A DNA stretch of 64,000 bases, taken from NCBI GenBank assembly GCA_965215195.1, contig CBDCDC010000002.1, positions 1,376,001-1,440,000 on the forward strand, written 5' to 3'. Shown piece after piece: positions 6,430 through 24,074 of this stretch. The notes beneath the pieces were generated by a model, which saw only the letters and a program-made list of their open reading frames with translations, made no database searches and was not told the origin of the DNA. The translations under genes and the position numbers were made by a program. Position 1 is the first letter of the stretch. Every line of letters begins with the position of its first letter. This DNA is from Candidatus Latescibacterota bacterium. Lineage in GTDB: Bacteria; Latescibacterota; UBA2968; UBA8231.

Positions 6430-6488
6430 CATCACCACCCACCCCGGCCGGAGCGGAAGTGCCCGGCCCACTCAAAGGAGAAGCGACC

Positions 6489-6716
6489 ATGACCGATTTG
6501 ATCCCCGACCCGCTAGCCGGAACCGTGCAGCAGATGGACAAGCGGCTCGACAGCATCGAGAGACGCCTCGACAGTATCGAGACCCACCAGCGCGAGAACG
6601 CCAATGCCGTCACCCAGCGCATCGATGCGTTGACGCGCTGGGTTATCGGCATCCAGCTAAGCACCTTTATCGCGCTGGTTGGCTTGCTGGTGGCGATCCT
6701 GTTGAAGCTACCCTAG
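6489..6716 (+). CDS. Small coiled-coil protein with C-terminal TM helix
   Basis: RBS AAGGAG; RLDSIE repeated; hydrophobic C-terminus. Confidence 0.7.
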   Translation: MTDLIPDPLAGTVQQMDKRLDSIERRLDSIETHQRENANAVTQRIDALTRWVIGIQLSTFIALVGLLVAILLKLP

Positions 6717-6728
6717 CCTCCAACCATA

Positions 6729-7508
6729 ATGGCCGACATCCTCAGCGAAATAGCCGCGTACAAGCGCGAATTCGTGGCCGCCCGCCAGCGCCAGCGCAGC
6801 CTAGCCGATGTGCGCGCTCATGCCCGCGACACGCCCATGCCAGCCGATTTCGCGGGTGTGTTGGCTGCGGACGGGATCGCCCTGATCGCCGAGGTCAAAA
6901 AAGCCTCGCCGTCCAAGGGCGTCATCCGCGCCGATTTCGACCCGGAGCGGATCGCCGATGCGTATGCGGCCAACGGTGCGCGCTGTCTTTCGGTATTGAC
7001 GGACGAGGCGTATTTTCAGGGGTGTGATGCGTATGTACAGATGGCTAAAGAAGTTGCGGGCTTGCCGGTGTTGCGCAAGGACTTCACCATCGACGAGTAC
7101 CAGATCTACGAAGCCCGCGTCATCGGTGCCGACGCCATTTTGCTGATCGCAGCCCTGATGGACTCCAGCCAGCTCGACGACTACTTGGGCCTAGCCGGCG
7201 AATTGGAATTAGACGCACTGGTCGAAGTCCACGATGGGGCGGAACTGGCGCGCGCCAAAGCAGCCGGGGCCCGGCTCGTCGGCGTCAACAACCGCGATCT
7301 GCGGACCTTTGCGACGACCTTGGAGACGACCTTCGCGCTTGTGGATCAGATGCCGGAGGGGGCTGTCGTCGTCAGCGAGAGCGGAATTGAAAACCGCGGC
7401 CATGTCGAGCGGCTCGCAGATGCGGGCGTCGATGCGATCTTGGTCGGCGAATCCCTGATGCGCGAAGCCGATATCGGGGCTAAAGTGAGGGAGTTACTAG
7501 GCACGTGA
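6729..7508 (+). CDS. trpC: Indole-3-glycerol-phosphate synthase
   Basis: IAEVKKASPSKG, LSVLTD, LRKDF, GVNNRDL, SESGI. Confidence 0.97.
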   Translation: MADILSEIAAYKREFVAARQRQRSLADVRAHARDTPMPADFAGVLAADGIALIAEVKKASPSKGVIRADFDPERIADAYAANGARCLSVLTDEAYFQGCDAYVQMAKEVAGLPVLRKDFTIDEYQIYEARVIGADAILLIAALMDSSQLDDYLGLAGELELDALVEVHDGAELARAKAAGARLVGVNNRDLRTFATTLETTFALVDQMPEGAVVVSESGIENRGHVERLADAGVDAILVGESLMREADIGAKVRELLGT

Positions 7509-8488
7509 AAAGACGAGTATTTTCGGGCATTCAGCCTTCGGGCCACCTCCACCTCGGCAACTACATCGGTGCCATCCGCAACTGGCTGGCAAACCTCGAT
7601 GGCCGCGACAATGTCTTCTGCGTGGTCGATCAGCACGCCATCACCGTTGACTACGACCCGGACGCACTGCGCGAGGGGACGCGCCAAGCGGTGGCCCTGT
7701 ACATGGCCTGTGGTCTCGATCCGGCCAAGTGCCGCCTTTTCGTGCAGTCGCACATCCCCGAACACACCGAGTTGGCTTGGCTTTTGACTTGTATCACGCC
7801 GATGGGCTGGCTGGAGCGGATGACCCAGTTCAAAGAACGGGTCGGCCCTCGGCGCGAGCGGGTCGGCACGGGGCTGTTCGTCTATCCGACGCTCATGGCC
7901 GCCGACATTTTGCTCTACCAGTCCCATGAGGTGCCCGTGGGCGACGATCAGAAACAGCACGTGGAACTGACGCGCGACATTGCCGAGCGCTTCAACCGCA
8001 AATTCGGTGAAGTGCTCACGGTGCCCGAACCGGTCATTCCCCAAGTTGGGGCGCGGATTATGGGACTGGACGACCCGACGGCGAAGATGTCCAAGTCGGC
8101 CACAGGACGCCACCACAGCATTGCTCTGCTCGACAGCCCGGACCAGGTGCGCAAGGCGATTATGCGCGCAGTGACCGATTCGCAGCAGGGCATTGTCTTC
8201 GATCCGCAGCGCCCCGGGCTGTACAACCTTCTGACAATCTACCAAGCATTGACCGGTAGCGGGCACGCCGAGATCGAGACGCATTTTGCCGGCAAGGGGT
8301 ACGGCGACTTAAAAAAGGAACTGGTCGAAGTAGTCATCGCCGAGATCGAGCCGCTCCAAGGCCGCTATCGGGAGTTGACGGCCGATCCCGCGTACATCGA
8401 CGAGGTACTCGCCACAGGCGTCGAGAGGCTGCGCCCGGTCGTTGACGCGACTATGGACGCGGTCCGTCGGGCCATGGGCCACCGATGA
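7505..8488 (+). CDS. trpS: Tryptophan--tRNA ligase
   Basis: SGIQPSG.LHLGNYIGA, YPTLMAADIL, VPVGDDQKQH, KMSKS. Confidence 0.97.
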   Translation: MKRRVFSGIQPSGHLHLGNYIGAIRNWLANLDGRDNVFCVVDQHAITVDYDPDALREGTRQAVALYMACGLDPAKCRLFVQSHIPEHTELAWLLTCITPMGWLERMTQFKERVGPRRERVGTGLFVYPTLMAADILLYQSHEVPVGDDQKQHVELTRDIAERFNRKFGEVLTVPEPVIPQVGARIMGLDDPTAKMSKSATGRHHSIALLDSPDQVRKAIMRAVTDSQQGIVFDPQRPGLYNLLTIYQALTGSGHAEIETHFAGKGYGDLKKELVEVVIAEIEPLQGRYRELTADPAYIDEVLATGVERLRPVVDATMDAVRRAMGHR

Positions 8489-8498
8489 GGGAGCAACT

Positions 8499-8762
8499 AT
8501 GAACCTGAGTGACTGGCGCGAACGCATAGATAGCATTGACCATCAGCTAATCGATCTGCTCAACGAGCGCATGCACTGCGCGCAGGAGATCGGGCGCATC
8601 AAAAAGGCCGCGGGAAAACCAATACGCGATCCCCAGCGCGAACTCGATGTGCTCGCCAAGGTCAAAGCCTACAATCAAGGACTAATTAAGGACGAGGCCC
8701 TAGAGGCACTCTACCGGCTGCTCATCGAAGTGACCACCAACTTCGAGCGCGAGGAGGCTTAG
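8499..8762 (+). CDS. Chorismate mutase (AroQ type)
   Basis: LSDWRERIDSIDHQLIDLLNER...IGRIK...IRDPQRE. Confidence 0.9.
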   Translation: MNLSDWRERIDSIDHQLIDLLNERMHCAQEIGRIKKAAGKPIRDPQRELDVLAKVKAYNQGLIKDEALEALYRLLIEVTTNFEREEA

Positions 8763-8791
8763 CCTTCTTCCGGAGGGCAGTCATCGTCGGC

Positions 8792-9859
8792 GTGGGCCTG
8801 ATTGGCGGCTCCATAGGCTTGGCGCTCAAGCGCACCGGCTTTGGCGGGCGGCTCGTGGGCGTCAGCCGCCCGGCAACCATCGCCCGCGCACTCGAACTGG
8901 GCGTGATCGACGAGGGATGGGGCTACCACGAGTTGGAGCGGGCACTCAAAGGGGCCGACCTAGTCTTTATCTGCACCCCGATCAAGCGGATTCTCGCGCT
9001 GATTGCGGAGGTGGGTCGGCTCGCCGACCCGGGGACGCTAGTTACCGATGTGGGGAGCACCAAGCGGCGCATCGTCGCGGCGGCCCAAGCCCATTTCAGG
9101 GACGAGGTGTACTTTGTCGGCGGCCACCCCATGGCCGGCTCGGAAAAGGCCGGCGTGGCCGCGGCCGATCCGTTCCTCTTCCAAAATGCGATCTACATTT
9201 TAGTTCCCGACCAAAAGGTTCCGGCCGAACGCTACGAGGCGTTGACCGCGCTCTTGCGGCAGGTCGGGGCGCGGGTGATGGAGCTGGACGCTGAGGCACA
9301 CGACCGGGCGGTCGCCGCGATCAGCCACTTGCCGCAGATGCTGGCGACCTCGCTGGTGGGCATGGTCGGGCGGCTCAATGCCGAGCGGGACCACTTCCTA
9401 CCGCTGGCCGCCGGCGGTTTCCGCGACTTGACGCGCATTGCCTCCAGCCCATTCGCGCCGGTGTGGGAAGATATCTGCGCGACCAATGCCGACGAGATCC
9501 GTGCGATGATCGACCGCTACATGGCCGCGCTCGCGGATGTGCGGGGGCGGCTGGAGGCCGAGGACCTAAAGGCGGATTTCGATTTTGCCAACGAGATTCG
9601 CGGGTCCATCCCGCGGGATTCAAAGGGGTTTATCCACGCGCTGTACGAGATCTTGGTGCTGGCCGAGGACCGGCCGGGCGTCATCGCCGAGATCGGGCAG
9701 GCGCTGGGGTCGCAAGGGGTAAACATCAACGATATTGAGGTAATGAAGGTGCGCGAGGGCGAGGGAGGGACGCTGCGGCTGGGATTTGACAGCGCGGAGA
9801 GCGCGGAAAACGCGCTGGGAATTTTGGCTCAGCTCGGGTATGTGGCGCGGAGGCCCTAG
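8792..9859 (+). CDS. tyrA: Prephenate dehydrogenase with C-terminal ACT domain (coding frame extends upstream to ~8762 with no canonical start)
   Basis: (RRAVIV)GVGLIGGS, TDVGSTK, GGHPMAGSE, HDRAVAAISHLP, GFRDLTRIA; ACT motif DRPGVIA. Confidence 0.92.
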   Translation: MGLIGGSIGLALKRTGFGGRLVGVSRPATIARALELGVIDEGWGYHELERALKGADLVFICTPIKRILALIAEVGRLADPGTLVTDVGSTKRRIVAAAQAHFRDEVYFVGGHPMAGSEKAGVAAADPFLFQNAIYILVPDQKVPAERYEALTALLRQVGARVMELDAEAHDRAVAAISHLPQMLATSLVGMVGRLNAERDHFLPLAAGGFRDLTRIASSPFAPVWEDICATNADEIRAMIDRYMAALADVRGRLEAEDLKADFDFANEIRGSIPRDSKGFIHALYEILVLAEDRPGVIAEIGQALGSQGVNINDIEVMKVREGEGGTLRLGFDSAESAENALGILAQLGYVARRP

Positions 9860-9862
9860 GCC

Positions 9863-11095
9863 ATGGAAGCAGTCGTAAGCCCAGTCAGGAAAATCGCCGC
9901 GCAGATCTCGGTGCCCGGAGAGCGGGCGTCAGCCGAGCGGGCGCTCGTGTTGGCCGCATTGAGCGAAGGAGATAGCACCGTCCGCAACGCGCCCGTTGCC
10001 GCTGGCCGCGTGGTGGCTCTATTGCGCGGGCTGGGCGTTGACATGGCCGAGTGTGCAGGCACCTATGCGGTGCGCGGCGTTGGGCTGCGGGGGTTTCACG
10101 GCGCAGCGGCGCCACTCGACCTAAAAGGGCTGGGCGACACCGCCCTGTTGTTGCTTCCCCTGCTCGCCGGGCAAGCGTTTCGCTCGCGGGTGAAGTTGGG
10201 GATGGAAGCCGAGCGGTGCCAGCCCTTGCTCAACCTGCTGACCCAGCTCGGATTCGCCGTAGAACAGGAGAGCGCAGACACCTTTGTAACCGGGGGACAG
10301 CAAGCCAAAGGGTGCGTCCTCTCCGCGGCACCCGCGACCGATGCCCTAGCACTGGGTGCGCTGGTGGGCGCACTCTTTGCCAAAGGGACGACCGCGCTGA
10401 AAAGCAGTCGCCGCGTGGAGCGATTGTTGCGCGGGCGCGGGGTTGCGGTCGAGCGGCGCAAACTGCTGTCGGTAGAAGGCGGACAGGCACTGCAGGGGGT
10501 TGACGTGGAGGTGCCTGGGCAACTCGCGTTGGCTTATCCGCTCATGGGGGCCGCGCTGTGCCGCAAGAGGTCGCAGCTAACCATCAAGCGCGTGGCCATT
10601 CGCCCTAAGCAGCGGGCCTTCTTGGATTTGCTGCGGCAGATTGGGGCGCAGATAACCGCAGAACACCTCGGGGAAACGACGCGCTTCGAGTGCGATTTGC
10701 ACGTGCGCACCAGCCAGTTAAAGGGGACGCGCGTGGCCGGGTCGCGGGCCGCCAAAGTCACCGACCAGATCGCGCTGCTAGCGGTCTTGGCGACCCAAGC
10801 AAAGGGGACGACGGTCATCCGCGACATCGAAGACGTGCCGCACGTGGAGGATATGTGCGCCGCGCTGCGCTCGCTCGATGCGCGGATTGGCCAGTTCCCG
10901 GAGGGACTCGTCATCAAAGGCGGCTTCCCGCTCCAAGGCGGCCAGCTCGACGGCAAGGGCGACCCCGGTTTAATCATGGCTTTTGCCGTGGCCGGGCTGT
11001 TGGCCGAAGGGGCGCTGACCATCCAAGGCAGCGAGTGCTTGACGCCTATCTGGCCCGATTTTTTCGAGACAGTACACCTTATGCGAGGAGATTGA
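9863..11095 (+). CDS. EPSP synthase (AroA)-like protein with degenerate active-site motifs
   Basis: Overall AroA sequence pattern and position after tyrA, but DKSISHR, GNSGT, SSQ, KESDR and DHR motifs are altered or absent. Confidence 0.75.
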   Translation: MEAVVSPVRKIAAQISVPGERASAERALVLAALSEGDSTVRNAPVAAGRVVALLRGLGVDMAECAGTYAVRGVGLRGFHGAAAPLDLKGLGDTALLLLPLLAGQAFRSRVKLGMEAERCQPLLNLLTQLGFAVEQESADTFVTGGQQAKGCVLSAAPATDALALGALVGALFAKGTTALKSSRRVERLLRGRGVAVERRKLLSVEGGQALQGVDVEVPGQLALAYPLMGAALCRKRSQLTIKRVAIRPKQRAFLDLLRQIGAQITAEHLGETTRFECDLHVRTSQLKGTRVAGSRAAKVTDQIALLAVLATQAKGTTVIRDIEDVPHVEDMCAALRSLDARIGQFPEGLVIKGGFPLQGGQLDGKGDPGLIMAFAVAGLLAEGALTIQGSECLTPIWPDFFETVHLMRGD

Positions 11096-11097
11096 AC

Positions 11098-11238
11098 ATG
11101 CTGGGACTCTTTCGGCTCTTTATAGGCGTGGCCGTGCTGTTGAGCGGCGGCCTACTCGCCATTCGCCTGCTCTACGGAGTATCGTGGCGCGAATCCCTAG
11201 AGATTGCCAACAGCTTTATTGAGGATTTGCTGGGGTAA
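11098..11238 (+). CDS. Small membrane protein
   Basis: RBS GAGGAG; 46 aa with hydrophobic N-terminal helix. Confidence 0.55.
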   Translation: MLGLFRLFIGVAVLLSGGLLAIRLLYGVSWRESLEIANSFIEDLLG

Positions 11239-11320
11239 TCCCAGCGATGCTGTGGGGCTGGGCTGGACATTCTATTAGGCTCCGGAGGGCGCGGTTGAAC
11301 TAGATAGACTGAGATTGATC

Positions 11321-11977
11321 ATGCCAATCCCAGATGCCCCTAAAATTTATCACATCTTCCATGTGGACCGCCTGCCCTCCATCATTAGCGACGGCTGCCT
11401 GTGGTGCGATAAGGAAGCGGCCCGGCGATCAATCGATGGAACGATGATTGGTATGAACCATCTCAAGCAGCGGCGGTTAGGATTGCATCTGCGGAGCCAC
11501 CCCGGCCTCCGCGTTGGCGACTGTGTGCCATTTTACTTCTCCCCACGTTCGGTCATGCTCTATGTGATCTACCGAAGGGAGCATTCAGATTTGTCCTATC
11601 GGGGCGGACAGGACCCCATCATTCATCTGGAGGCAAACTTGGCGCAAACGGTTGAGTGGGCGGACGACGAGGGGTGGCGCTGGGCATTCACGAACTCGAA
11701 TGCTGGCGGCTTTTCCTCTCGTGATTGGTGCAACTGGGAGCAATTAGATCAGATCAACTGGAATGCGGTACAAGCTAAAATGTGGAGCGGTCCCGATGTT
11801 GATCCATCCGTTAAGGAACACAAGCAAGCGGAATTCCTAGTTGAGCGGCGTTTCCCATGGAAGTTGGTGAACCGCATTGGCGTCTACTCGCAACAAGTCG
11901 AAAAGCAGGTGAGTGTCGCCTTGCGGGGGGCCAGTCATCAACCTCTTGTCGAAGTTAAGAGGGAGTGGTATTACTGA
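11321..11977 (+). CDS. darT: DarT DNA ADP-ribosyltransferase toxin (DUF4433)
   Basis: IYHIFH, VPFYFSPRSVMLY, FTNSNA, catalytic KQAEFLV, WYY C-terminus. Confidence 0.92.
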   Translation: MPIPDAPKIYHIFHVDRLPSIISDGCLWCDKEAARRSIDGTMIGMNHLKQRRLGLHLRSHPGLRVGDCVPFYFSPRSVMLYVIYRREHSDLSYRGGQDPIIHLEANLAQTVEWADDEGWRWAFTNSNAGGFSSRDWCNWEQLDQINWNAVQAKMWSGPDVDPSVKEHKQAEFLVERRFPWKLVNRIGVYSQQVEKQVSVALRGASHQPLVEVKREWYY

Positions 11978-11994
11978 ACAGAAAGGAGAACACT

Positions 11995-12498
11995 ATGATC
12001 GAATACAAGACCGGCGACCTCATGGCCGAAGAGGTCGAAGCCTTGGTCAACACTGTCAACTGCGTCGGGGTTATGGGACGCGGTATCGCACTTCAGTTTA
12101 AGAAGGAGTTCCCGGAAAACTTCAAAGTCTATGCCAACGCATGCAGGCGTAAGGACGTTAAGTTAGGCCAGATGTTCGTGTTCGAGAGAGATGATATGTT
12201 TTCTCCGCAGCCGCGGTACATCATCAACTTTCCGACCAAGCGGCACTGGCGCAACAAGAGCAGGATGGAGGATATCGAGTCCGGGTTGGCGTCGCTTGTA
12301 ACGGAGATTCGGGAACGCGGCATCCGCTCAATTGCCATCCCAGCACTCGGTAGTGGTTTGGGCGGGTTGAACTGGTACGCAGTACGCACTCGCATGCAAA
12401 AGGCTCTAACAGAACTGGACGACGTGAAGATCGTCATATTCGAGCCGGACAGTGGGCCGGTCACACCCAAGCCAACCGTTCAAGCGACATTCCAATAA
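11995..12498 (+). CDS. darG: DarG antitoxin, macrodomain only
   Basis: VNTVNCVGVMGRGIALQFK, INFPTKRHWR, IPALGSGLGGL; ends ~16 aa after the macrodomain. Confidence 0.88.
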   Translation: MIEYKTGDLMAEEVEALVNTVNCVGVMGRGIALQFKKEFPENFKVYANACRRKDVKLGQMFVFERDDMFSPQPRYIINFPTKRHWRNKSRMEDIESGLASLVTEIRERGIRSIAIPALGSGLGGLNWYAVRTRMQKALTELDDVKIVIFEPDSGPVTPKPTVQATFQ

Positions 12499-12533
12499 AT
12501 GTTCGTCTTAAGTCGGCTTCAAAGGAGACTTTT

Positions 12534-13382
12534 GTGATTTCCGGGACGACGCGGGTGCTCGGCGTCATCGGCGACCCGGTCGCACACACAGCGTCGCCGG
12601 CCATGCACAACGCCGCGCTCCGGGCGCTGAATCTCGACTATGTGTACGCGGCGTTCCGCGTTGCTCCCGCAGCCTTGCCCCAAGCGCTCGCCGGAATGCG
12701 CGCCTTCGGCATGGTCGGGCTGAATGTAACCGTGCCGCACAAGCAGGCCGTCATGGCGCATCTCGACGAGATTTCCGCCGAGGCCCAGAGCATTGGCGCG
12801 GTCAATACCATTGCCAACCGCGATGGGCGGCTCGTGGGGTACAATACCGACGCCTTTGGGATTGTCCAAAGCCTCAGGGCCGATGGCGGCTTGGACCCGC
12901 TGCCGCCCAAGGTCGCGCTCCTCGGGGCGGGCGGGGCGGCGCGGGCCGTGCTCTACGCGCTGCTGGCGCGGGAGGAGGTGGAGGAGGTGCTGCTGCTCAA
13001 CCGCACGGTGGAAAAGGCCGCAGCCCTCGCCGGTGACCTCGACCGCGCTGGCAAGGTGCGGGTCGGGTCGCTGGCCGAGAGTGGGGTGATTGGGGACGCT
13101 GGTTTGCTCATCAATGCCACGGCGCTGGGGATGCACCCCCGCGCCGACGTTTCGCCGCTGGCAGACCCGTCGTGCCTACACGAGCACATGTTGGTCGCCG
13201 ACATTGTGTACAACCCGCTGGAGACCGCGCTCATGCGGCAGGCTGCCGCTGCTGGTGCGCCGGCGATCAACGGCTTGGGGATGCTCGCTTGGCAGGGCGC
13301 GCGTTCGTTTGAGATATGGACGGGTGTGGAGCCGCCGGTCGAGGCGATGATGGCGGCCGCACTGGAGCATTTCCCCGGCTAG
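12534..13382 (+). CDS. aroE: Shikimate dehydrogenase
   Basis: SPAMHN, NVTVPHK, GAVNT, NTD, GAGGAARA, DIVYNP. Confidence 0.95.
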   Translation: MISGTTRVLGVIGDPVAHTASPAMHNAALRALNLDYVYAAFRVAPAALPQALAGMRAFGMVGLNVTVPHKQAVMAHLDEISAEAQSIGAVNTIANRDGRLVGYNTDAFGIVQSLRADGGLDPLPPKVALLGAGGAARAVLYALLAREEVEEVLLLNRTVEKAAALAGDLDRAGKVRVGSLAESGVIGDAGLLINATALGMHPRADVSPLADPSCLHEHMLVADIVYNPLETALMRQAAAAGAPAINGLGMLAWQGARSFEIWTGVEPPVEAMMAAALEHFPG

Positions 13383-15145: not shown

Positions 15146-15678
15146 TGGTAAAAGGGCCGGTATTTCTGACGGGGTTTATGGGCGTGGGCAAGACCCAAGT
15201 CGGGCGCATTCTGGCGCGGCAGCTAGGGCGTCGCTTCTTGGACACCGACCGGATGATTGAACAGCGCGCCGGCAAGCCCATTGCGGCGATTTTCGCCGAC
15301 GAAGGCGAGGCGCACTTCCGCCAGCTAGAGCGCGCCTGCGTCCTCGAAACCTGCCAGTGCCCGGATGCCGTAGTGGCCTTGGGCGGCGGGGCGATCACCC
15401 GCGCCGACAATGTCGCGGCCGTGCGCCGCGCCGGCGTCTTGGTCTGTCTCAAGGCCGATGTGGATACGATTTTCGCCCGCGTCAGGCGCCGCGTCCACCG
15501 GCCCTTGCTCGCCGGGTTGGGGCCGCAGGCCCAGCGCGCCAAGATAGAGTCCCTGCTCCGCGAGCGCACTCCGTTCTACGAGCAAGCCCACCTCGAGCTG
15601 TACACCACGCAGGCACAGACGCCTGAGGACACGGCGAGGCAACTCCGCAACTTACTGGAGAGCTATGCAAAGAATTGA
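15145..15678 (+). CDS. aroK: Shikimate kinase
   Basis: GFMGVGKT, DTD, GEAHFR, LGGG, RPLL; TGATG overlap with argS. Confidence 0.93.
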   Translation: MVKGPVFLTGFMGVGKTQVGRILARQLGRRFLDTDRMIEQRAGKPIAAIFADEGEAHFRQLERACVLETCQCPDAVVALGGGAITRADNVAAVRRAGVLVCLKADVDTIFARVRRRVHRPLLAGLGPQAQRAKIESLLRERTPFYEQAHLELYTTQAQTPEDTARQLRNLLESYAKN

Positions 15679-16774
15679 CTTAGACCTCCCGGGGGCTGCA
15701 TACCCCATCTTCGTCGGCCACGACATCCTCGGGGAACTGGGGCCGCGTTGCCGCGACTTGGCCTTGGGCCGGCAGGTCGCGCTGGTGACCGACGAGCTCG
15801 TGGCGGCGCACTACCTACAGCCTGCGGCCGCCAGCTTGCGCCGGGCCGGATTCGAGGTGTTGGAGATCGTCTATGCCGGGGGCGAGAGTGCCAAGACCTT
15901 GGGCGGGGCCGAAGGCATTTTCGCGCAGATGATCGAGGCCGAGTTCGACCGCGGCGCTTGGGTCGTAGCCCTCGGCGGGGGCGTGGTCGGCGACATGGCC
16001 GGCTTTGTGGCCTCCACCTATTTGCGCGGCGTGCCCTACGTGCAGGTGCCTACGACCATCGTCGCGCAGGTGGATTCGAGCATTGGCGGCAAGACCGGGG
16101 TCAACCACGCGCTGGGCAAAAACCTAATCGGCACCTTTCACCAGCCGCGCTTGGTCTTGGCCGACACGACCGCCCTGCACTCGCTGCCGCGGTCGGAGCG
16201 GGTCGCGGGCATGGCCGAGGTGGTCAAGCACGGGCTGATCCGCGACGCCGCGCTCTTCGCCTTTTTGGAGGAGCACTTGGAGGCGGTCGTGGACATGGCG
16301 CTGGCACCGGCGACCTTGGACTGGCTCATTGGCCGCAATGTCGAGATCAAGGCCGCGGTGGTGGCCGCCGACGAAAAGGAGCAGGGCTTGCGGGCCATCC
16401 TCAATTACGGGCACACCATTGGGCACGCGATTGAGGCCGCCACGGACTACAGCCGCTACCGGCACGGGGAAGCGGTGATTTTGGGCTCAATCGCCGCGGG
16501 CGAAATCGCCTGCCGCGAGGGATTTTGGTCCTCCGCAGAAAGGCAGCGGCAGGACGCGTTGCTGGAGAGATTGGGGGTGCCTCCGGGATTGGCCGCGGTC
16601 GAGGCGGAGCGGATTTTGGCCTGTGCTTATGCCGACAAGAAGCGGGTGGATGGGCGGTTGCGGTTCGTGCTGGGTCGGCGGATTGGGGAGGTGGAGGTCG
16701 TGGAGGGAATAACCGATGCGACAGTGCGCGCAGCCATTGCATACGCGCAGCAGTACTCTGGGCGCGACCCATGA
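15665..16774 (+). CDS. aroB: 3-dehydroquinate synthase
   Basis: LGGGVVGD, PTT..AQVDSSIGGKT, KNLIGTFHQP, LNYGHTIGHAIE, HGEAV. Confidence 0.96.
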   Translation: MQRIDLDLPGAAYPIFVGHDILGELGPRCRDLALGRQVALVTDELVAAHYLQPAAASLRRAGFEVLEIVYAGGESAKTLGGAEGIFAQMIEAEFDRGAWVVALGGGVVGDMAGFVASTYLRGVPYVQVPTTIVAQVDSSIGGKTGVNHALGKNLIGTFHQPRLVLADTTALHSLPRSERVAGMAEVVKHGLIRDAALFAFLEEHLEAVVDMALAPATLDWLIGRNVEIKAAVVAADEKEQGLRAILNYGHTIGHAIEAATDYSRYRHGEAVILGSIAAGEIACREGFWSSAERQRQDALLERLGVPPGLAAVEAERILACAYADKKRVDGRLRFVLGRRIGEVEVVEGITDATVRAAIAYAQQYSGRDP

Positions 16775-16918
16775 TTCGGGCGTTACTCAAACGTTGTGGA
16801 GAACGCCATCGCCCAACGCACGGACATCCACTCGCTTACAAACGAGACGATCTTTACGCGCTCTGCATTTACCAAATCGCCGTTCTCTAACCTACTTAAT
16901 CCAAAGGGCGACAACACC

Positions 16919-19114
16919 ATGCAAGACCGTGGCATTATCGCATACAAAGACAAGCTAGATCAGGTCATCGATCGCTATGGCGATTTTCTCGGCGATGAGG
17001 CGGCAAACCTCGCCCTAGAACACGGCATCCCCGCGGCCAAGGAATTGCAAGCAAACCTAACGGCCATTGAAGATGAAAACCGCCTACTCAAGATCGGCAT
17101 TGTGGGACGAGTCAAATCTGGAAAATCCTCCCTGCTAAACGCCCTGCTCTTCGCGGGGGAAAGCATCCTGCCCAAGGCCGCAACTCCCATGACAGCGTCC
17201 TTAACGACGCTTTCTTACGGGGAGAGCCAAACGGCCGAAGTGGAGTTTTTCACCCAAGAGGACTTGAGACATATTGAGGGCAAGTACAATGAATATAAGA
17301 CGCGAGAAGAGCGGCTCTACGAGAAATTTCTAACCGAAGAACAAGCAAAAGAGACTCGCTCGCGTAGGTCCCCAGAAGAGCGAGCGAGAAGTAAGGCCAA
17401 GCGGGCGATGGGGGATGGCAACGACGCATTGATCGCCGCTTATGAGCAATACGATAAAATCGAAAAATCCGGAATCAACACCAGGGCGCTCGAGAAAAAG
17501 ACCGTTCTCAAGTTTGCAAGGCTCGCCGCTTTGCGTGGTCAGTTGGATGATTACGTCGGCGCGACAGGCCGTTACATGCCCGTTACCAAAAGCGTCAACA
17601 TTCGGCTGCCGCAAGAGAATCTGCGGGATATAGAAATTGTGGACACGCCGGGTATTAACGATCCGGTTCAGTCGCGTGAGGCGCGAACCCAACAGCATTT
17701 GAGTCAATGCGATGTGGTGTTGATCGTCAGTCCCGCCGGTCAGTTTATGAGTTCGGCGGATCTGAACCTGATGGATCGCATTGCTGGGAAGGAAGGCATC
17801 CGCGAGCTATACGTGGTGGCGTCGCAAGCCGATACGCAGCTTTCCAGCAATTTGAAGGATGAAAACAACGGCGACTTGGATCGCGTGTTGGAGTGCCTCA
17901 CTACGGTGCTTGGCAGGCATCTGGAGGCGATCATTGGCGATTTGAAGAAGCGCAATCCCGAAGTGGGCACTACCTACGATCAGTTGCTCGATCAAGGTAA
18001 GATCATTCACACTGCGGGCATTTGCGAAAGTCTGAAGCAGAGTTTTGAGCAGAAAAATGCGTGGGATGCGGGGATGCAGCATGCTTGGGACTGTTTGTTG
18101 GCCGAGTATGGAGATTATTTCTCCGCTGAAGATGCGGAGTTGTCGCGCATCAATCTGGAGAAGTTGTCCAACATACCGCGCATTTGGGAAATCGTCGCCA
18201 ATGTACGCGAACGAAAGGACACCATAATCAAGGACCGCCAAACAGAGTACATCGGCGCAAAACGCCAGTCCCTACACGAGTTAAAAGACGGCTTGCTCAA
18301 GTATGCCAACCATCGGCATACTCAGATTGAGAATATGGAGCTTGAAAGCTTTAAGAAGCGGCGCGACCATTTGCACAAGCGTCTGGAAAGGACGGCTTAT
18401 CTGATTAGGGAGGCGCACGCGGAATCGGTTGATCAGGTTAAAAAAGACCTGAATGACAATTTTAGAAAGGAACTAGCAATTCGCGATCGGCAGGTCCAAG
18501 AGGATATCGCTGGAGCGAAAGGCGAAGAATATGAAAGTCATCCAACAGGTTTATTTAAGAGAGATAAGACAAGACGTATTGAGACTATCTACACGAATGC
18601 TGTCGTTTGGAGCTTGACGGAATCTGCTGACAAAATGATAGAGGAGATTGCCGAGAAAACAGACGCCCAAAAGGACCAGTGGCGGGGTAAACTCAATAAG
18701 GAGCTAACTAAAGTTTTGCAGCAAGAATTGGGCGATGAGGATGTAGAAGCATGGAGAGTCCGCGAGATTATCAGAAATGCCGTCAATTCCATATCCATCT
18801 CACCATTCAAACACAATACCCAATTGCCAGAGAAGCTGAGTTCTCAGGGTGTGTTGAGGGATAAGGACGCGAGGAATTTTTTTGATAAGGCATGCGACTA
18901 TTCTAAGGAATCTTGTAGCGACCTTCGCAAGAAGGTGAATCGGTACATCAAAGATCTCACCGCAGAGATGGGCAGAGTTGAGTTAGACAAGTTGCTGCTG
19001 GAAAAATTCAACGAGGAATTCGCTTCCCTTGAGGAGTCGATTGCCAAGAAGGAAATGGAGTTGAAGCGAATCGCCCGCATTAGGGAAGAACTGAAGGAGA
19101 TTGATAATGGCTAA
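16919..19114 (+). CDS. Bacterial dynamin-like GTPase A
   Basis: G1 GRVKSGKS, G2 ATPMT, G3 DTPG, degenerate G4 SQAD; long helical/coiled-coil C-terminus. Confidence 0.88.
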   Translation: MQDRGIIAYKDKLDQVIDRYGDFLGDEAANLALEHGIPAAKELQANLTAIEDENRLLKIGIVGRVKSGKSSLLNALLFAGESILPKAATPMTASLTTLSYGESQTAEVEFFTQEDLRHIEGKYNEYKTREERLYEKFLTEEQAKETRSRRSPEERARSKAKRAMGDGNDALIAAYEQYDKIEKSGINTRALEKKTVLKFARLAALRGQLDDYVGATGRYMPVTKSVNIRLPQENLRDIEIVDTPGINDPVQSREARTQQHLSQCDVVLIVSPAGQFMSSADLNLMDRIAGKEGIRELYVVASQADTQLSSNLKDENNGDLDRVLECLTTVLGRHLEAIIGDLKKRNPEVGTTYDQLLDQGKIIHTAGICESLKQSFEQKNAWDAGMQHAWDCLLAEYGDYFSAEDAELSRINLEKLSNIPRIWEIVANVRERKDTIIKDRQTEYIGAKRQSLHELKDGLLKYANHRHTQIENMELESFKKRRDHLHKRLERTAYLIREAHAESVDQVKKDLNDNFRKELAIRDRQVQEDIAGAKGEEYESHPTGLFKRDKTRRIETIYTNAVVWSLTESADKMIEEIAEKTDAQKDQWRGKLNKELTKVLQQELGDEDVEAWRVREIIRNAVNSISISPFKHNTQLPEKLSSQGVLRDKDARNFFDKACDYSKESCSDLRKKVNRYIKDLTAEMGRVELDKLLLEKFNEEFASLEESIAKKEMELKRIARIREELKEIDNG

Positions 19115-21419
19115 GAGTACGCTGCATTCAGCCGCGGATCATCGCAGTTTTGATTCGTTGCGTTCAGAGCACGAGGAGTTGCAAAAAAAATACAAACTGG
19201 TCTCCGATCTGCTCACGGCCAAACCCAACAAACACGTAGAATTCGAGAAGTTCGAGCGCCTCTTGAACGAGGAGTTTCGGGCATTTGCTGATGCGGAGTC
19301 GTCGCTGGCCGAGGAAGCGGCCGCGGTGCAGCGCCTCGAAAAACTGGCCGAGCGGCTGAAAGAACTGGTGGTCTTTCCGCATCTTTTCGCCAAGCGATCC
19401 ATTGCCATTGGGGGCGGGTTCAGCAGCGGCAAGTCGGCGTTTGTCAACAGTTTTATCGAGGGACATGACCATTTGCTGCCGGAGCGAGTCGAACCGGCCA
19501 CGGCCATTCCTTCCTTCGTCATCGCCAATTCGGAACTGGTGATCAAGGGCTTTTCCCGCACCGGCGATACGGTGGATATCGACCCGACCCTGTACTCCCA
19601 ATTATCCCACAATTTTATCGATACCTTTTCTTTTAATCTCAAGGACATCATGCCTTCCATCACAGTAGAGGTTCCTTTGCGCGACAACTTGTTTGAAAAC
19701 CTCTGCTTGATCGATACGCCGGGCTACAATCCAGGGGGCCGGAATGAAGACCGCACTACGGCGGCTGATTTTCTCAAGGATCGAGATGCGCTCATCTGGA
19801 TTATTGGGTTGGATTCTACTGGCACGGTTCCCAAGGACGATTTGGAGTTTCTGGAGGATTTGGAATTGGGGTCTTTGCCGTTTTACGTGGTTTTGAACAA
19901 GGCGGACAGAAGACCCCGCAGTGAATTGGAGAAGGTGCTGAGCGAGGTGCAGGATACGCTTGCCGACGCGGATTTCGACCCTCTTGGAATCTGCGTGTAT
20001 AATTCCCGCCGCGGTGAGCAATTCTTAGATGATGGGATGTCGTTGGCGGACTTTTTCCGCGAGCAAAACCAACCCAAAGAAGCGAACACGGGCTTGAAGC
20101 AGGAGATTGAGGGCGTCTTTGAGATGTATGAGAATGCCATTCGCAAAGACGAAAGAACGGCCAAGTGGATGACAAACGAACTCAACGCTATCGACTTTCA
20201 TCTTTCTGAGTTGAGTCCTGACGATGCGGACGTTTTAGGGGAAAAAGTCAGCAAGCTCATCGACTCGCAAAAGAGAGATTTCGCGCCGATCAAGAAACAG
20301 ATGAGCGAGATCCGGCAAAAGATGCTCAGTGCCGTTGATGAAATTTTCCGGTCGCTGAACCTTGCCAAGCCGGAACGAACAGCGCGGGAAGCGAAAGGCG
20401 AGAGTGAGGAAAGAGAATTTATTGCGAAGATAGGTCGCAAGCCATCGCCGAATATCGTGTACAACAAAGGAGTGACCGACCTCCATCACGCTGGGCATCT
20501 GAATCTGCCTGTACTCGCTCAATCCCTGCTGGATCAGGGAGCCGACATCGAGGCAAAGGCCACACTACACGCCAGTATCTCGCCGCACCTTACGACACTT
20601 TTGGATAAAATGGGAATGGGAGACGATGAGTTTGAGCTAGAAGACAGTACGCCGCTGCACATTGCGGCGTTTGCAAATGCGCGGGAGACCGCCGAAGTCT
20701 TGATCCAAAACGGAGCCAACATCAACGCCAAAGACAACGAGGGCCGGACGCCGCTGCACTGGACGGCGGTGGGGAATGCGCGGGAGACCGCCGAAGTCTT
20801 GATCCAAAACAGAACCAACATCAACGACAAGGACAACGAGGGCGGGACGCCGCTGCACGCTGCGGCGTTTGCAAATGCGCGGGAGACCGCCGAAGCCTTG
20901 ATCCAAAACGGAGCCAACATCAACGCCAAAGCCAACAAGGGCTGGACGCCGCTGTACGCTGCGGCGTTTGCAAATGCGCGGGAGACCGCCGAAGTCTTGA
21001 TCCAAAACAGAGCCAATATCAACGCCAAGGACAACGAGGGCACTACACCGCTGCACGCTGCGGCGTTGGGGAATGCGCGGGAGACCGCCGAAGCCTTGAT
21101 CCAAAACAGAGCCGATGTCTATGCCAAAGCCAAGCATGGCGTTACGCCGCTGCACTATGCGGCGTTGGAGGATGCTTCGTCGGTGGCGGCGGTGTTGCTT
21201 GAGCAGGGAGCCGACATCAACGCCAAAGCCAAGCATGGCGGGACGCCGCTGCATGCTGCGGCGTTTGCAAATGCGCGGAAGACCGCCGAAGTCTTGATCC
21301 AAAACGGAGCCAACATCAACGCCAAGGACAACGAGGGCACTACACCGCTGCACGATGCGAAGGAGAATGGAGCTCGTGAAACAGCAGAGTTATTGATCCG
21401 CTATGGTGGCCAACGTTAG
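19107..21419 (+). CDS. Bacterial dynamin-like GTPase B fused to C-terminal ankyrin repeats
   Basis: G1 GGFSSGKS, G2 PATA, G3 DTPG, G4 NKAD, then 8 TPLH-type 33-aa repeats; overlaps the upstream gene by 8 nt. Confidence 0.88.
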   Translation: MAKSTLHSAADHRSFDSLRSEHEELQKKYKLVSDLLTAKPNKHVEFEKFERLLNEEFRAFADAESSLAEEAAAVQRLEKLAERLKELVVFPHLFAKRSIAIGGGFSSGKSAFVNSFIEGHDHLLPERVEPATAIPSFVIANSELVIKGFSRTGDTVDIDPTLYSQLSHNFIDTFSFNLKDIMPSITVEVPLRDNLFENLCLIDTPGYNPGGRNEDRTTAADFLKDRDALIWIIGLDSTGTVPKDDLEFLEDLELGSLPFYVVLNKADRRPRSELEKVLSEVQDTLADADFDPLGICVYNSRRGEQFLDDGMSLADFFREQNQPKEANTGLKQEIEGVFEMYENAIRKDERTAKWMTNELNAIDFHLSELSPDDADVLGEKVSKLIDSQKRDFAPIKKQMSEIRQKMLSAVDEIFRSLNLAKPERTAREAKGESEEREFIAKIGRKPSPNIVYNKGVTDLHHAGHLNLPVLAQSLLDQGADIEAKATLHASISPHLTTLLDKMGMGDDEFELEDSTPLHIAAFANARETAEVLIQNGANINAKDNEGRTPLHWTAVGNARETAEVLIQNRTNINDKDNEGGTPLHAAAFANARETAEALIQNGANINAKANKGWTPLYAAAFANARETAEVLIQNRANINAKDNEGTTPLHAAALGNARETAEALIQNRADVYAKAKHGVTPLHYAALEDASSVAAVLLEQGADINAKAKHGGTPLHAAAFANARKTAEVLIQNGANINAKDNEGTTPLHDAKENGARETAELLIRYGGQR
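20649..21410 (+). repeat. 99-bp tandem repeats encoding 8 ankyrin repeats
   Basis: Recurring ACGCCGCTGCAC...GCAAATGCGCGGGAGACCGCCGAAGTCTTGATCCAAAAC with 99-nt period. Confidence 0.92.
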
Positions 21420-21440: not shown

Positions 21441-22760
21441 ATGAACGAAAACCAGCCTCACAAAGTTCACCTAGTCAGCTTGGGGTGCCCGAAAAACACG
21501 GTCGATTCCGAGCGGATGCTGGGGCTTTTGCAGGGCCATGCCTATCAGATGACGGACGCGCCGGAAGAAGCGGACGTGGTGGTGGTCAATACCTGCGGCT
21601 TTATCGAACCGGCCAAAGAGGAGTCCCTCGCCGCGATTATGGACGCGCATCGGCTCAAGCAAGAAGGTCAATGCGAGGGCGTGATCGTCACGGGGTGTCT
21701 ATCGACGCGCTACTACGAAGAGCTAGCGCAGGAGTTGGTGGAGGCCGACAAGCTGTTGACGATCGCCGACGAGGCCGACATCGTCCACCACGTTGACGAC
21801 GTGTTGGGCGTCCAGCGGCCCGATTACTTAGCTAGTTTGCCGCGCACCTCGCTGACGCCCAAGCACTGGGCATACCTGCGCATATCCGACGGCTGCGATC
21901 ACCAATGCGCCTTTTGCGCCATTCCCGCCATTCGCGGGCGGCACAAAAGCGAGCCGCTCGAACAGCTCGTGGCCGAGGCCGAGCGGCTGGCCGCGGAAGG
22001 GGTGCGGGAGCTGGTCTTGGTCTCGCAGGATTCAGTGCGCTACGGGGCCGATCTGTACGGCCGGCCCCAGCTCGTGCGCCTTTTGCAAGCCCTCGCCGAG
22101 GTGGAGGGCATTGAGTGGATGCGCTTGATGTACACCTATCCGGCGTTTTGGACCGAGGAATTGATCGACTTCTACGCCACATGCGACAAAATGTGCGGGT
22201 ACATCGACATGCCGCTACAGCACATTGCCGACCCGGTGCTCAAGCGCATGAAGCGGGCGACGACGCGCCAAAAGACGCTCGATCTGCTGGCGCGACTGCG
22301 GGAGCGGCTGCCCGGGGCCGGGCTGCGCTCGACGTTCATCGTCGGCTTTCCCGGGGAGACCGACGCCGATTTTGCCGCCTTACTGGAGTTTGTGGCCGAG
22401 ACGCGCTTCGACTACGCGACCGGCTTTCTCTACTCGCCGGAAGATGGGACCACAGCCTATGAGCTCGGCGATCCGGTCGCCGAGGAAATCAAGCAGGAGC
22501 GCTACAGCCGCCTGACGCAACTGCAAGAGCGCGTGGGCACGGAGAAAAACGACGCCCTAGTCGGTACGCGGCAGCAGGTCTTGGTCGATGCGCACGACGG
22601 GGCGGTGTGCTATGGGCGGATGGAGCGCGACGCCCCGGAAATCGACGGCCAAGTCATCATCGCCGAGGGCATGCCGCCGGTGGGTTCTTTCGTCGCAGTG
22701 GAGATCACGGCCGCCGCGCCCTACGAGCTGACCGCTAAGGTAGTGGGAGAGCCGCGTTGA
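21441..22760 (+). CDS. rimO: Ribosomal protein S12 methylthiotransferase
   Basis: SLGCPKNTVDSE, NTCGFI, GCDHQCAFCAIP, APEIDG. Confidence 0.95.
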   Translation: MNENQPHKVHLVSLGCPKNTVDSERMLGLLQGHAYQMTDAPEEADVVVVNTCGFIEPAKEESLAAIMDAHRLKQEGQCEGVIVTGCLSTRYYEELAQELVEADKLLTIADEADIVHHVDDVLGVQRPDYLASLPRTSLTPKHWAYLRISDGCDHQCAFCAIPAIRGRHKSEPLEQLVAEAERLAAEGVRELVLVSQDSVRYGADLYGRPQLVRLLQALAEVEGIEWMRLMYTYPAFWTEELIDFYATCDKMCGYIDMPLQHIADPVLKRMKRATTRQKTLDLLARLRERLPGAGLRSTFIVGFPGETDADFAALLEFVAETRFDYATGFLYSPEDGTTAYELGDPVAEEIKQERYSRLTQLQERVGTEKNDALVGTRQQVLVDAHDGAVCYGRMERDAPEIDGQVIIAEGMPPVGSFVAVEITAAAPYELTAKVVGEPR

Positions 22761-23100: not shown

Positions 23101-23496
23101 CTACCGCAACCACGCCTCAAGATATTCCTTTACGGCACCGCTTACATGAGGCGAATCGCTTATCTCTTTCCGCAGCCGATGCACTACTTTGAAAGGGAGA
23201 TTCCCAACTATGGCATACAGGTTAAGGAATTTCGGATTAATGGAAAACTCAATTTTCTTAGGATTGACTAACCCCACCGCGGTTTGATCTATATAGCGAC
23301 AATGATGGCTGAAGTCAGGCCATTCACTAGCTGAGACGATGATGTGGGGAGTATCTTGGGGAGCGACTCTATTGCGATTGCGGTAAACAACCGCAACCGC
23401 GACTTCTGGGGCCTCTGAGGGAAATGGCGTCGTAAGAACGACTAGCTCTGGATGAGAGGAACCTTTCGGAGAAAGACATAGCCCCTCCCAGTTCAT
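23101..23496 (-). CDS. Hypothetical protein, putative PemK/MazF-like toxin paired with Panacea
   Basis: ATGA overlap with the Panacea gene; pattern loosely like Panacea-associated PemK-like proteins. Confidence 0.5.
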   Translation of the reverse strand: MNWEGLCLSPKGSSHPELVVLTTPFPSEAPEVAVAVVYRNRNRVAPQDTPHIIVSASEWPDFSHHCRYIDQTAVGLVNPKKIEFSINPKFLNLYAIVGNLPFKVVHRLRKEISDSPHVSGAVKEYLEAWLR

Positions 23497-24074
23497 TTGA
23501 GGAGATCCAAGAGAGCCTGTCCTTTGAGACGGCGCAAGGTGAAGTTAATTTCCTCTTGTGATTTGCCTAGTGCGCTAAGAATATCGCGTACGGATAGGGG
23601 TATTCTGCGCTCTCCATACCGATCTTCATCGGGGTTTTGGTATTCCGGCAGATCGTGGCTCTCATCGCGCAGTTGCTGCCAAGATTTGCTCCCATGCTCG
23701 GCAAAAATCTCATCCGCTAGTGCTATTTCAAATTCGGATAGCTCATCCACAGCAGCAGGCTTAATCAGCTTGATGTGGTACTGGTCGCTCGGTGCAATGT
23801 GCTGCGACCAAACCCCCTCGTCTCTAGTAGAGACCCCTCTGGCTAAGTCCATAGTTGCACTGACCACAGGTCCATGGGGGAGAGAAAAATAAATGTCTGT
23901 CGAGACGGCTACTCCACGGCGATCAAAGGCTGCTCTATCAATGAGATAGATCAATTTGATCAGTGAAAGATGCGGATACGGCCTATTCACTTTACTGAGC
24001 AGGTACGCGGCAAGCTGAGTAGCTTTCCTCTCGTTAAAATAAGGACGGGTTGGGACCTGTTCGGATTGCATCAT
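23493..24074 (-). CDS. Panacea/SocA (DUF4065) antitoxin
   Basis: FNERKATQ, LIKLIYLIDR, LPHGPV, SHDLPEY; RBS AGGAGG. Confidence 0.85.
   Translation of the reverse strand: MMQSEQVPTRPYFNERKATQLAAYLLSKVNRPYPHLSLIKLIYLIDRAAFDRRGVAVSTDIYFSLPHGPVVSATMDLARGVSTRDEGVWSQHIAPSDQYHIKLIKPAAVDELSEFEIALADEIFAEHGSKSWQQLRDESHDLPEYQNPDEDRYGERRIPLSVRDILSALGKSQEEINFTLRRLKGQALLDLLK

Follow-up and report, generated by a model that had tools for sequence, protein, structure and literature searches.

An ankyrin-tailed dynamin-like GTPase pair between aroB and rimO of a Latescibacterota bacterium: remainder of a widespread three-dynamin operon with a candidate sensor-adaptor tail

Between the housekeeping genes aroB and rimO of a Candidatus Latescibacterota bacterium lie two overlapping genes that each encode a dynamin-like GTPase, and the second of the two proteins ends in an array of ankyrin repeats. 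The genes, here called A and B, belong to the window, i.e., the whole stretch of 64,000 nucleotides that was analyzed (GenBank assembly GCA_965215195.1, contig CBDCDC010000002.1, positions 1,376,001 to 1,440,000 of the forward strand); positions given without a locus name refer to the window, and all genes of this site are encoded on its plus strand. Gene A extends from 16919 to 19114 and gene B from 19107 to 21419, with an overlap of the two open reading frames (ORFs) of 8 nt, an arrangement that had been described in a first-pass annotation made from the letters alone and that was confirmed with respect to coordinates, overlap, and flanks. On the left the pair is flanked by aroB (15665-16774; 3-dehydroquinate synthase, NCBIfam TIGR01357, E 1e-106), upstream of which aroE, argS, and aroK are located, and on the right by rimO (21441-22760; NCBIfam TIGR01125, E 6.1e-141). 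As described below, A and B are the remainder of an accessory operon of three dynamin-like genes in the order C-A-B that is widespread in bacteria, and this structural and evolutionary part of the analysis is secure. More tentatively, the exchangeable tail of B may serve as a sensor or adaptor.

Gene A encodes a full-length dynamin-like protein of 731 amino acids, read from an ATG, with a long helical C-terminal half that lacks a hydrophobic segment. Its GTPase domain (residues 59-300, 17093-17818) was recognized by the Pfam profile Dynamin_N with an E-value of 1.5e-23 and 84.1 bits at a cut-off of 27, covering profile positions 1-165 of 168, and a whole-genome Pfam search agreed. A charged insert of ~100 amino acids lies within this domain between G1/G2 and G3. 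Homologs of A with a length of 730-760 amino acids occur in many phyla, and in the PDB the protein matches 5owv_A (E 9.7e-16, or 7.6e-19 by profile) and BDLP (2j68, E 3.4e-9); the support for a dynamin fold of A comes from these sequence matches. In B, Dynamin_N is matched at residues 99-252 with an E-value of 6.5e-9 and 36.5 bits at the same cut-off. The GTPase motifs quoted in the first-pass annotation, GRVKSGKS, DTPG, and SQAD in A and GGFSSGKS, DTPG, and NKAD in B, are present and are invariant or nearly so in the family alignments: G63, G68, K69, S70, T92, D242-G245, and D305 are invariant among 63 A-type proteins, and G102, G103, G108, K109, S110, T132, D203, P205, and G206 among 116 B-type proteins. 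Both A and B therefore possess the G1 P-loop, the switch-I threonine, the G3 DxxG, and the G4 motif of the dynamin superfamily GTPases. Neither of them has a hydrophobic N-terminus in a Kyte-Doolittle (KD) scan, in which all 19-residue windows stay at or below 1.16 (maximum in A 1.15) with the peaks inside GTPase strands, in agreement with the earlier remark that a signal peptide is not evident.

Gene B encodes a protein of 770 amino acids, in which a trunk-less dynamin-like core (residues 1-442, 19107-20432) is followed by the ankyrin array (residues 458-770, 20478-21416). The array is matched by Pfam Ank in seven stretches (E 2.3e-54, 178.7 bits) and by Ank_2, Ank_3, Ank_4, and Ank_5 as well; hidden Markov model (HMM) searches for Dynamin_N and Ank, as had been proposed at the outset, thus found both domains. 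Eight canonical tandem units of 33 amino acids, each anchored by a TPLH/Y motif, start between residues 515 and 746 and are preceded by one or two degenerate helix pairs at residues 458-501 of the AlphaFold2 (AF2) model, which agrees with the initial count of eight repeats plus a degenerate one; in the DNA, the array appears as a 99-bp tandem repeat of 7.1 copies (20649-21353). The AF2 model of full-length B has a mean predicted local distance difference test (pLDDT) value of 87.3, with 92-97 in the array, whose helix pairs are matched in Foldseek by designed ankyrin binders (DARPins) and ankyrin-B. Because Foldseek with full-length B gave ankyrin and DARPin chains only, the core was modeled separately (residues 1-470, pLDDT 84.9, predicted template modeling score 0.71). 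It consists of N-terminal helices, a GTPase domain at residues ~97-320, and helices at 326-442 that form a neck bundle, and the matches of the model, which extend over residues ~43-420, agree with a dynamin neck (BSE/HD1) made of helices on both sides of the GTPase domain. In Foldseek, the core matches truncated mitofusin-1 (5yew_A, E 6e-13) as well as BDLP (2j69_A), IniA (6j72), and Cj-DLP2 (5oxf_C, E 4.6e-11), and VIA-align finds IniA with a Z-score of 20.8 (root-mean-square deviation, rmsd, 8.0 over 294 aligned residues), the minimal GTPase domain of Fzo1 with 20.2 (rmsd 3.1, 208 aligned), and that of SynDLP with 19.1. Neither a trunk nor a membrane-binding paddle is found in the AF2 model of B, where about four helices follow the G domain and the ankyrin array begins past the helix at 426-442. 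As modeled, B is a minimal dynamin, in which the tail would stand in for the membrane-binding half.

The possibility that the fusion of dynamin core and ankyrin array is an assembly chimera, which had been raised together with its first description, is excluded by homologs, by genomes with the same site, and by contigs of an independent run. The fusion is genuine because 63 of the 120 listed B homologs carry Ank domains, because three other genomes have the same fusion at the same site, and because contigs of run X6, which comes from another study, overlap across the junction of core and ankyrin array. In overlapping pieces these contigs span 17238-20791, one of them with 3,305 nt corresponding to 17238-20542 with 60 differences, and they end within the ankyrin repeats, as is usual for short-read graphs. 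A near-identical and intact A-B pair (97-98% identity) is present in another assembly.

The first-pass annotation had read the two genes as a pair, a reading that needs correction, since the unit of this family comprises three dynamins. When A, the core of B, and C, a third dynamin discovered next to the paralogous pair described below, were searched with tblastn on 80 loci from one-genome-per-species contigs, 69 loci showed the order C-A-B; in nine the upstream DNA was too short, one locus (genome G026) has A-B alone and one C-B alone, and C is thus kept in 69 of the 71 loci with enough DNA. The carriers include Campylobacterota (Helicobacter pylori, Campylobacter, Sulfurovum, Arcobacter), Pseudomonadota (Neisseria, Pseudomonas, Thiothrix, Marinobacter, and others), Spirochaetota (Treponema), Fibrobacterota (Fibrobacter), Bacteroidota, Desulfobacterota, Planctomycetota, and Latescibacterota. 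In some loci (L076, L099, L102, L108, and L110) two B-type genes stand in tandem after C-A, giving four dynamins. The C protein has ~575 amino acids and is distantly LeoA-like; its best NCBIfam match is CrfC, which is very weak. With 19-residue KD values of 2.33-2.36 at residues ~445-470, as opposed to at most 1.16 in A and B, C alone among the three proteins is predicted to have a hydrophobic segment for the membrane.

At the site in the window, only traces of C are left. The left junction between aroB and A (16775-16918) contains remnants of its 5' end (~16782-16809) and its 3' end (~16826-16870): in blastn against the corresponding locus of genome G025, 16782-16809 is the start of C, and 16826-17000 comprises the last ~50 nt of C, the spacer between C and A, and the start of A. 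The translated 3' remnant, IHSLTNETIFTRSAF, resembles the C-terminus of the G025 protein, and ~1.68 kb of C is missing. A complete C-A-B operon is present at the same aroB-rimO site in G025 and G004; the A-B pair of the window is the derived remainder of a three-gene unit, from which the first gene, encoding the putative membrane subunit, was deleted. An in-frame GTG at 16796 would extend A by 41 amino acids through the remnants of the deleted gene (16796-16918), and A may be translated with this C-derived leader from the original start signals of the operon. When promoters and terminators were scanned for, no site was predicted upstream of A, and the number of sites was lower than in shuffled sequences. 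The same genome harbors a complete paralogous operon on another contig (locus L014, G000:C1:538000-557000, 6251-12997) with a C of 577 amino acids, A' of 731, and B' of 935, the latter with ankyrin repeats and an FGE-sulfatase domain. A' and B' share 52-54% identity with A and B, respectively. The paralogous operon has a low G+C content and a DDE transposase gene after it, and its synteny is conserved in G004, G018, and G026. Two more clusters of three Dynamin_N ORFs each are located at G000:C1:611929-616258 and G000:C2:2434267-2439517, and the genome contains ~11 dynamin-like ORFs in all.

The A-B insertion between aroB and rimO measures 4.65 kb and has a G+C content of 0.47-0.55, compared to ~0.65 in the flanks. 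Of 61 related genomes, a set to which the window's genome belongs, 8 have a homolog of the B core (E <= 1e-30), as do 5 of the 30 other genomes of the genus, and A-B occupies the aroB-rimO site in 4 of 31 genus genomes, namely its own, G004, G025, and G026. An empty site, in which aroB directly abuts rimO, is present in four of five genomes checked (G001, G008, G018, G027); in the fifth, G005, the stretch of 1.5 kb retrieved on the upstream side of rimO contains no aroB. Both forms appear in run X5, where a contig joins 16752 to 21441 with 17 other letters in between at a depth of 189, compared to ~6 for the filled form, and therefore filled and empty alleles coexist in one sample. Among the public sequencing runs listed for the locus there was none of RNA, and one labeled as sponge metagenome had a share of 0.08, which is no evidence of habitat. 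Synonymous divergence (dS) of A and B toward G025 and G026 is 0.41-0.52 and that of aroB and rimO 0.38-0.53; the values are equal, which means that insertion and flanks diverged together. The ratio dN/dS amounts to 0.31-0.34 for A and 0.21-0.23 for the B core, with 0.11-0.15 in the housekeeping flanks, and is 0.42-0.50 for the B tail, a value that is approximate as the repeats align ambiguously. A-B is therefore accessory, yet under purifying selection in A and the B core. In G004, a transposase of the IS4/5 family (DUF4096 and DDE_Tnp_1; L026 12526-13146) splits gene A into parts encoding residues 1-50 and 43-731, which lie ~900 bp apart. By eye, neither a direct repeat nor an integrase was seen at the borders of the insertion, where no repeat search was run.

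The tail of B is modular and changes fast. Profile searches of the PDB with B alignments were swamped by the ankyrin columns. A profile search of protein representatives suffered from the same problem: its totals (198,624 at E <= 0.001 and 6,605 at E <= 1e-30) also count proteins that have nothing but ankyrin repeats and do not measure the size of the family, so that from this search the listed core matches alone were used. Among the 120 listed B homologs, 63 have Ank, 20 helix-hairpin-helix (HhH), and 3 FGE-sulfatase domains, and tail length in the family ranges from 0 to 530 amino acids, with a short tail or none in relatives at ~40% identity from other phyla. Ten long representatives of the wider family, hand-picked because a long stretch lies outside the core match (at the C-terminus in nine and at the N-terminus in P0339), carry nine WG_beta_rep units in two proteins, nine Sel1 units plus TPR in one, seven TPR units in one, Sel1 in two, FGE-sulfatase in one, and HEAT in one; in the remaining two no tail domain was recognized. 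The survey for swapped C-terminal domains that had been suggested therefore yielded ankyrin, HhH, Sel1, TPR, WG, HEAT, and FGE-sulfatase on the same core. In the sister clade, some tails consist of one to five HhH units, an XRE-like helix-turn-helix (HTH), or lysine-rich stretches. Some B-type proteins (P0042, P0043, P0049, P0053) combine such a C-terminal tail, HhH or lysine-rich, with a coiled coil of 380-485 residues that extends the N-terminus. On a FastTree tree of the core with 116 rows and the tail columns excluded, for which the alignment left out five of the 120 matches (P0034, P0035, P0088, P0103, P0119), the Ank label needs at least four changes and the HhH label at least nine, the HhH count being inflated by truncated proteins. 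Even where the cores are identical, the ankyrin arrays can be of unequal length, and so can the whole proteins, with 872 vs. 983 amino acids in P0007/P0008 and 896 vs. 938 in P0012/P0013. Furthermore, in 245 ankyrin units from 36 close homologs the framework positions have an entropy below 1 bit, whereas unit positions 1, 2, 3, 5, 10, 13, and 17 exceed 2.4 bits and position 14 reaches 1.95. Positions 2, 3, 5, 13, and 14 are among those randomized in DARPins, where they belong to the target-binding face, so that the hypervariability falls on the surface by which ankyrin repeats canonically bind. Such a pattern would be in keeping with a recognition module of changing specificity, the main inference of the first-pass annotation. 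The sensor idea of the first-pass annotation is thereby upheld in one part, since tail swaps, repeat number, and the binding face argue comparatively for a putative recognition module. Its other part, in which a heteromeric pair remodels membranes, cannot be read from A-B alone, because the unit ancestrally consists of three dynamins and the membrane-anchored one has been lost.

The genomic context of the family was surveyed in 25 genera with one locus each, chosen by us and not at random, with three ORFs per side and no background rate. After two very long ORFs (L061:14403-21077 and L066:13410-18485) had been removed from 149, there remained 147 that were scanned, among which WYL was found in eight, WCX in five, a DDE transposase in four, a methylase of type I restriction-modification systems in two, the corresponding specificity subunit in two, NERD in two, a UvrD-type helicase in two, and BrxL in one. 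In six of the eight WYL cases a WYL-WCX gene lies directly upstream of C, and relatives of the WYL cluster are present in the fetched flanks of 22 of the 80 loci. Defence systems are commonly under the control of BrxR/CapW-type WYL-WCX regulators, and PADLOC lists WYL as CRISPR-associated signaling. On the 449-kb megaplasmid NZ_CP133095.1 of Pseudomonas aeruginosa (L120, 1102-13298), a DEAD/DEAH helicase, an EH-signature protein, WYL, and the three dynamins form a cluster bounded by IS256, IS30, and integrases; the EH-signature protein and the helicase are reminiscent of ZorC and ZorD. On a Calditerrivibrio plasmid, the three dynamins adjoin IS200/TnpB. The survey of defence-island context that had been recommended thus found WYL-WCX, mobile, or defence genes in other phyla, but it had no background and met no regulator in the window. 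Overall, the context is suggestive of a role in conflict.

Two small islands lie within 5 kb on either side of A-B in the window. The left one (11315-12498, plus strand, G+C content 0.54) is located just upstream of aroE and encodes a toxin-antitoxin pair of DarT (PF14487, E 1.2e-60) and DarG (NF048014, E 1.2e-77), the latter with 177 amino acids and the macrodomain part only. The right one, a low-G+C islet on the minus strand (23101-24074), consists of a SocA/Panacea antitoxin gene (193 amino acids) overlapping an ORF of 131 amino acids without a family match, and is situated between a 105-amino-acid ORF after rimO and the gene of a membrane protein of 688 amino acids. There is no room for this islet in three of the four genomes with an empty aroB-rimO site (L035, L036, L037), and in the fourth (L038) the 688-amino-acid gene is outside the fetched stretch.

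The sequences show a division of labor within the unit: the membrane segment resides in C, A is long and soluble, and B is reduced to GTPase and neck and carries the swappable tail, which would serve for binding. We tentatively regard A-B as the remainder of a sensor-adaptor dynamin system that includes a role in conflict or defence, a joint claim to which we give somewhat less than an even chance. This role is favored by the many types of tail and their turnover, by the accessory nature of the genes, and by a context of WYL regulators and mobile elements in other carriers. In such a system, the tail of B would bind a specific protein, most likely a component of a phage or mobile element, by analogy with repeat-tailed NTPase sensors, and binding would concentrate or release the GTPase domain of B. 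This could lead to nucleotide-dependent heterotypic assembly of B with A and a C subunit, similar to the activation of Cj-DLP1/2, and through the partners that bear a trunk the bound target would be coupled to a mechanical action, or an action on the membrane, that is driven by GTP, with sequestration, membrane sealing, or abortive membrane damage as conceivable outcomes. At the locus of the window, C might be borrowed from the paralogous operon, or the pair might act without a membrane anchor. A complex prediction of A residues 1-440 with the B core, made without controls, scored 0.20 and 0.12 against a mark of 0.32 and bears neither way on binding. A more far-reaching proposal, which we consider possible but doubtful, is that C-A-B represents a new class of immune system, in which a dynamin GTPase takes the role of a STAND NTPase. 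The tail of B would then sense the invader and nucleate assembly with the trunk-bearing A and the membrane-inserted C, which would trap the invader at the cytoplasmic membrane or remodel this membrane, and the system, often under BrxR-like WYL-WCX control, would be a bacterial analogue of Mx-type restriction with a swappable pattern receptor built in.

Several observations weigh against a role in conflict or defence. Among the products of the operon there is neither a nuclease nor a toxin nor any other effector of the classic kind, and a recognizable hydrophobic paddle, which membrane action by A would call for, was not found in A by the KD scan. No relatives were found in 50,697 phage records and IMG/VR. 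In PADLOC, A and A' have no match to LeoA or LeoBC, and B matches LeoBC with an E-value of 0.005 and 13.9 bits; the HMM check for Eleos suggested by the first-pass annotation thus brought up nothing beyond noise. With respect to context, the label "enrichment" was rejected for the flank survey, as the loci were hand-picked and lack a background; none of the 22 WYL loci is among the nine Latescibacterota loci (L040-L048), and in H. pylori the operon lies among ordinary genes between czcA and gpsA-glyQ. In the window itself, the flanks are housekeeping genes without a regulator and the membrane subunit is gone, so that the pair may be impaired. Finally, the sister tails that look DNA-binding fit cellular tethering as well as sensing. 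Because a defence-model match, an effector, a local regulator, and a membrane subunit are all missing, a cellular adaptor and local decay stay alive as explanations.

If the operon encodes a cellular, non-immune machine, the tail would be a localization adaptor that directs A and C to one constant place or cargo in the cell, for which the divisome, the nucleoid, storage bodies, or a protein of the envelope come into question, and would serve membrane repair, vesicle formation, or DNA-membrane tethering, functions that have been proposed for other dynamin pairs of bacteria. Known pairs of bacterial dynamin-like proteins (DLPs) are described to tether or repair membranes (Cj-DLP1/2 in excerpts of PMC6104087; DynA), and the same excerpts note extra domains on bacterial DLPs. 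HhH, HTH, and lysine-rich tails would suit DNA or anionic lipid, and the very weak CrfC match of C, the ordinary neighbors in H. pylori, the lack of a PADLOC match, and a dS equal to that of the flanks, which speaks for stable vertical inheritance in this clade, point in the same direction. However, a fixed partner would predict neither seven tail types nor changes of repeat number on identical cores nor variability of the binding face, and WYL-WCX and mobile contexts are unusual for housekeeping operons. The patchy occurrence at the site in only four of 31 genus genomes, with the empty allele dominant in one sample, is likewise unexpected, and the insertion sequence (IS) in gene A of G004 and the loss of C here argue for dispensability. 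Overall, such a machine is a rather unlikely explanation. Another explanation is local decay, in which A-B would have been non-functional since the loss of C and would persist for lack of time. That 69 of 71 informative loci keep C, that C is deleted here with remnants, that A is disrupted in G004, and that in run X5 the empty allele is by far the more abundant would all be expected in this case. Nevertheless, both ORFs are intact (731 and 770 amino acids) with all GTPase motifs, the near-identical pair in another assembly is intact too, G026 likewise keeps an intact A-B without an adjacent C, and an intact paralogous C is encoded in the same genome; the dN/dS of 0.21-0.34 also speaks against decay, though it is averaged over the time before the deletion. 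We hold a decaying remnant to be clearly unlikely. Highly unlikely is a factor for host interaction, whose ankyrin array targets a eukaryotic host protein as in ankyrin-rich symbionts. The repeats do score against models of Legionella Ank effectors, far below the cut-off, the genome has ~14 Ank-bearing ORFs (41 Ank_2 matches), and papers link Latescibacterota, sponges, and ankyrin proteins. However, a signal peptide or secretion signal is not recognizable in A or B, the array is fused to a cytoplasmic GTPase that would work with partner dynamins, and free-living and diverse bacteria have TPR, Sel1, WG, HEAT, and HhH tails at the same position. Since homologs in such bacteria carry other tails there, the logic of the tail is general and not directed at eukaryotes.

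The sensor-adaptor reading matters because most bacterial DLPs are of unknown function, and for Eleos, the sole known case of a dynamin system in defence, no mechanism of sensing is known. In the family described here, one subunit has apparently swapped its membrane-binding trunk for interchangeable repeats that would bind protein or DNA. If the tails are sensors, they would offer direct access to the way in which a dynamin machine finds its target, and a link to Mx-like restriction; if they are cellular adaptors, they would show how bacteria direct dynamin machines to particular sites. In either case, the copy in the window, which lacks the membrane subunit, is a natural experiment on the parts that are needed.

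Among known systems, Cj-DLP1 and Cj-DLP2 of Campylobacter resemble A-B in being adjacent dynamin-like genes in one operon, 5owv_A is the best PDB sequence match of A, and the fold of the B core matches DLP2 chains. According to Liu, Noel and Low (2018; PMC6104087), the GTPase is activated when the two proteins assemble with each other, which also enables them to tether membranes, and a 119-amino-acid N-terminal assembly domain of Cj-DLP1 receives helix 1 of DLP2 (PDB 5owv/5oxf). In contrast, residues 41-48 of A align to 149-154 of 5owv_A and only ~55 residues precede the P-loop of A; because A aligns only from position ~150 of 5owv_A, it is predicted to lack the assembly domain of DLP1. B differs from Cj-DLP2 by the absence of a trunk or lipid-binding tip and by its repeat tail, and the C-A-B unit comprises three genes instead of two. 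Additional non-canonical domains on bacterial DLPs are known, such as a DnaJ-like C-terminus on a neighbor of BDLP1 (excerpts of PMC6104087).

Eleos/LeoABC likewise consists of an operon of consecutive dynamin-like GTPases located in accessory regions, and the C proteins of the family are weakly similar to the LeoA and LeoBC models of PADLOC (E 4e-11 to 4e-8). In the Millman 2022 preprint, phage defence by Eleos is shown to depend on the P-loop, and the Mx proteins are antiviral factors of the dynamin family; for LeoC a membrane anchor and for LeoB a lipid-binding part are described by Michie et al. (2014; PMC4159319). A fraction with defence neighbors of roughly 60% is reported for Eleos. Eleos is thus a system of two proteins with membrane-binding parts and without repeat tails, whereas the locus in the window lacks C. 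As adjacent matches to LeoA and LeoBC are not present in PADLOC, identity with Eleos was rejected. Against the NCBIfam family LeoA/HP0731, C scores 21-24.5 bits at a cut-off of 325, and A and B are not listed; the C-type protein of H. pylori at the czcA-gpsA locus has no match to this family at all. The similarity to the H. pylori pair HP0733/HP0731 that had been suggested in the first-pass annotation did not hold, as the closest H. pylori relatives are those between czcA and gpsA-glyQ. These relatives of A, B, and C may be HP0964-HP0966. HP0964-HP0966 are annotated as "putative ATP/GTP-binding protein" and belong to the variably present genes, and HP0732 and HP0733 are remnants of an ancestral polypeptide (PMC2375058), while HP0731 gives the LeoA family its name (excerpts of PMC12757443).

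DynA of Bacillus subtilis, in which two dynamin GTPase units work together and for which phage resistance through protection of the membrane is reported, is a fused housekeeping membrane-binding protein without a sensor-like tail. A and B are separate genes instead, and B reaches 20.7 bits with the DynA model NF052648 at a cut-off of 1600; the scores of the CrfC model are far below its cut-off as well. The likeness to repeat-tailed NTPase sensors of the STAND/NLR type is one of analogy, as in both an NTPase is followed by exchangeable modules and the tails diversify quickly, but the NTPase here is a TRAFAC dynamin-type GTPase and no effector domain is fused to it. A paper on a DLP mutant of Pseudomonas pseudoalcaligenes (PMC6344628) could not be tied to the C-A-B family. 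In the library of papers that was searched, none was found that describes a fusion of dynamin and ankyrin repeats in bacteria, an operon of three dynamins in which repeats form a tail, or a link between dynamins and WYL regulators; Table S5 of Millman 2022, a list of dynamin systems, may include relatives. By its predicted proteins, C-A-B is a variant within the dynamin-like systems that is neither Eleos nor the Campylobacter pair.

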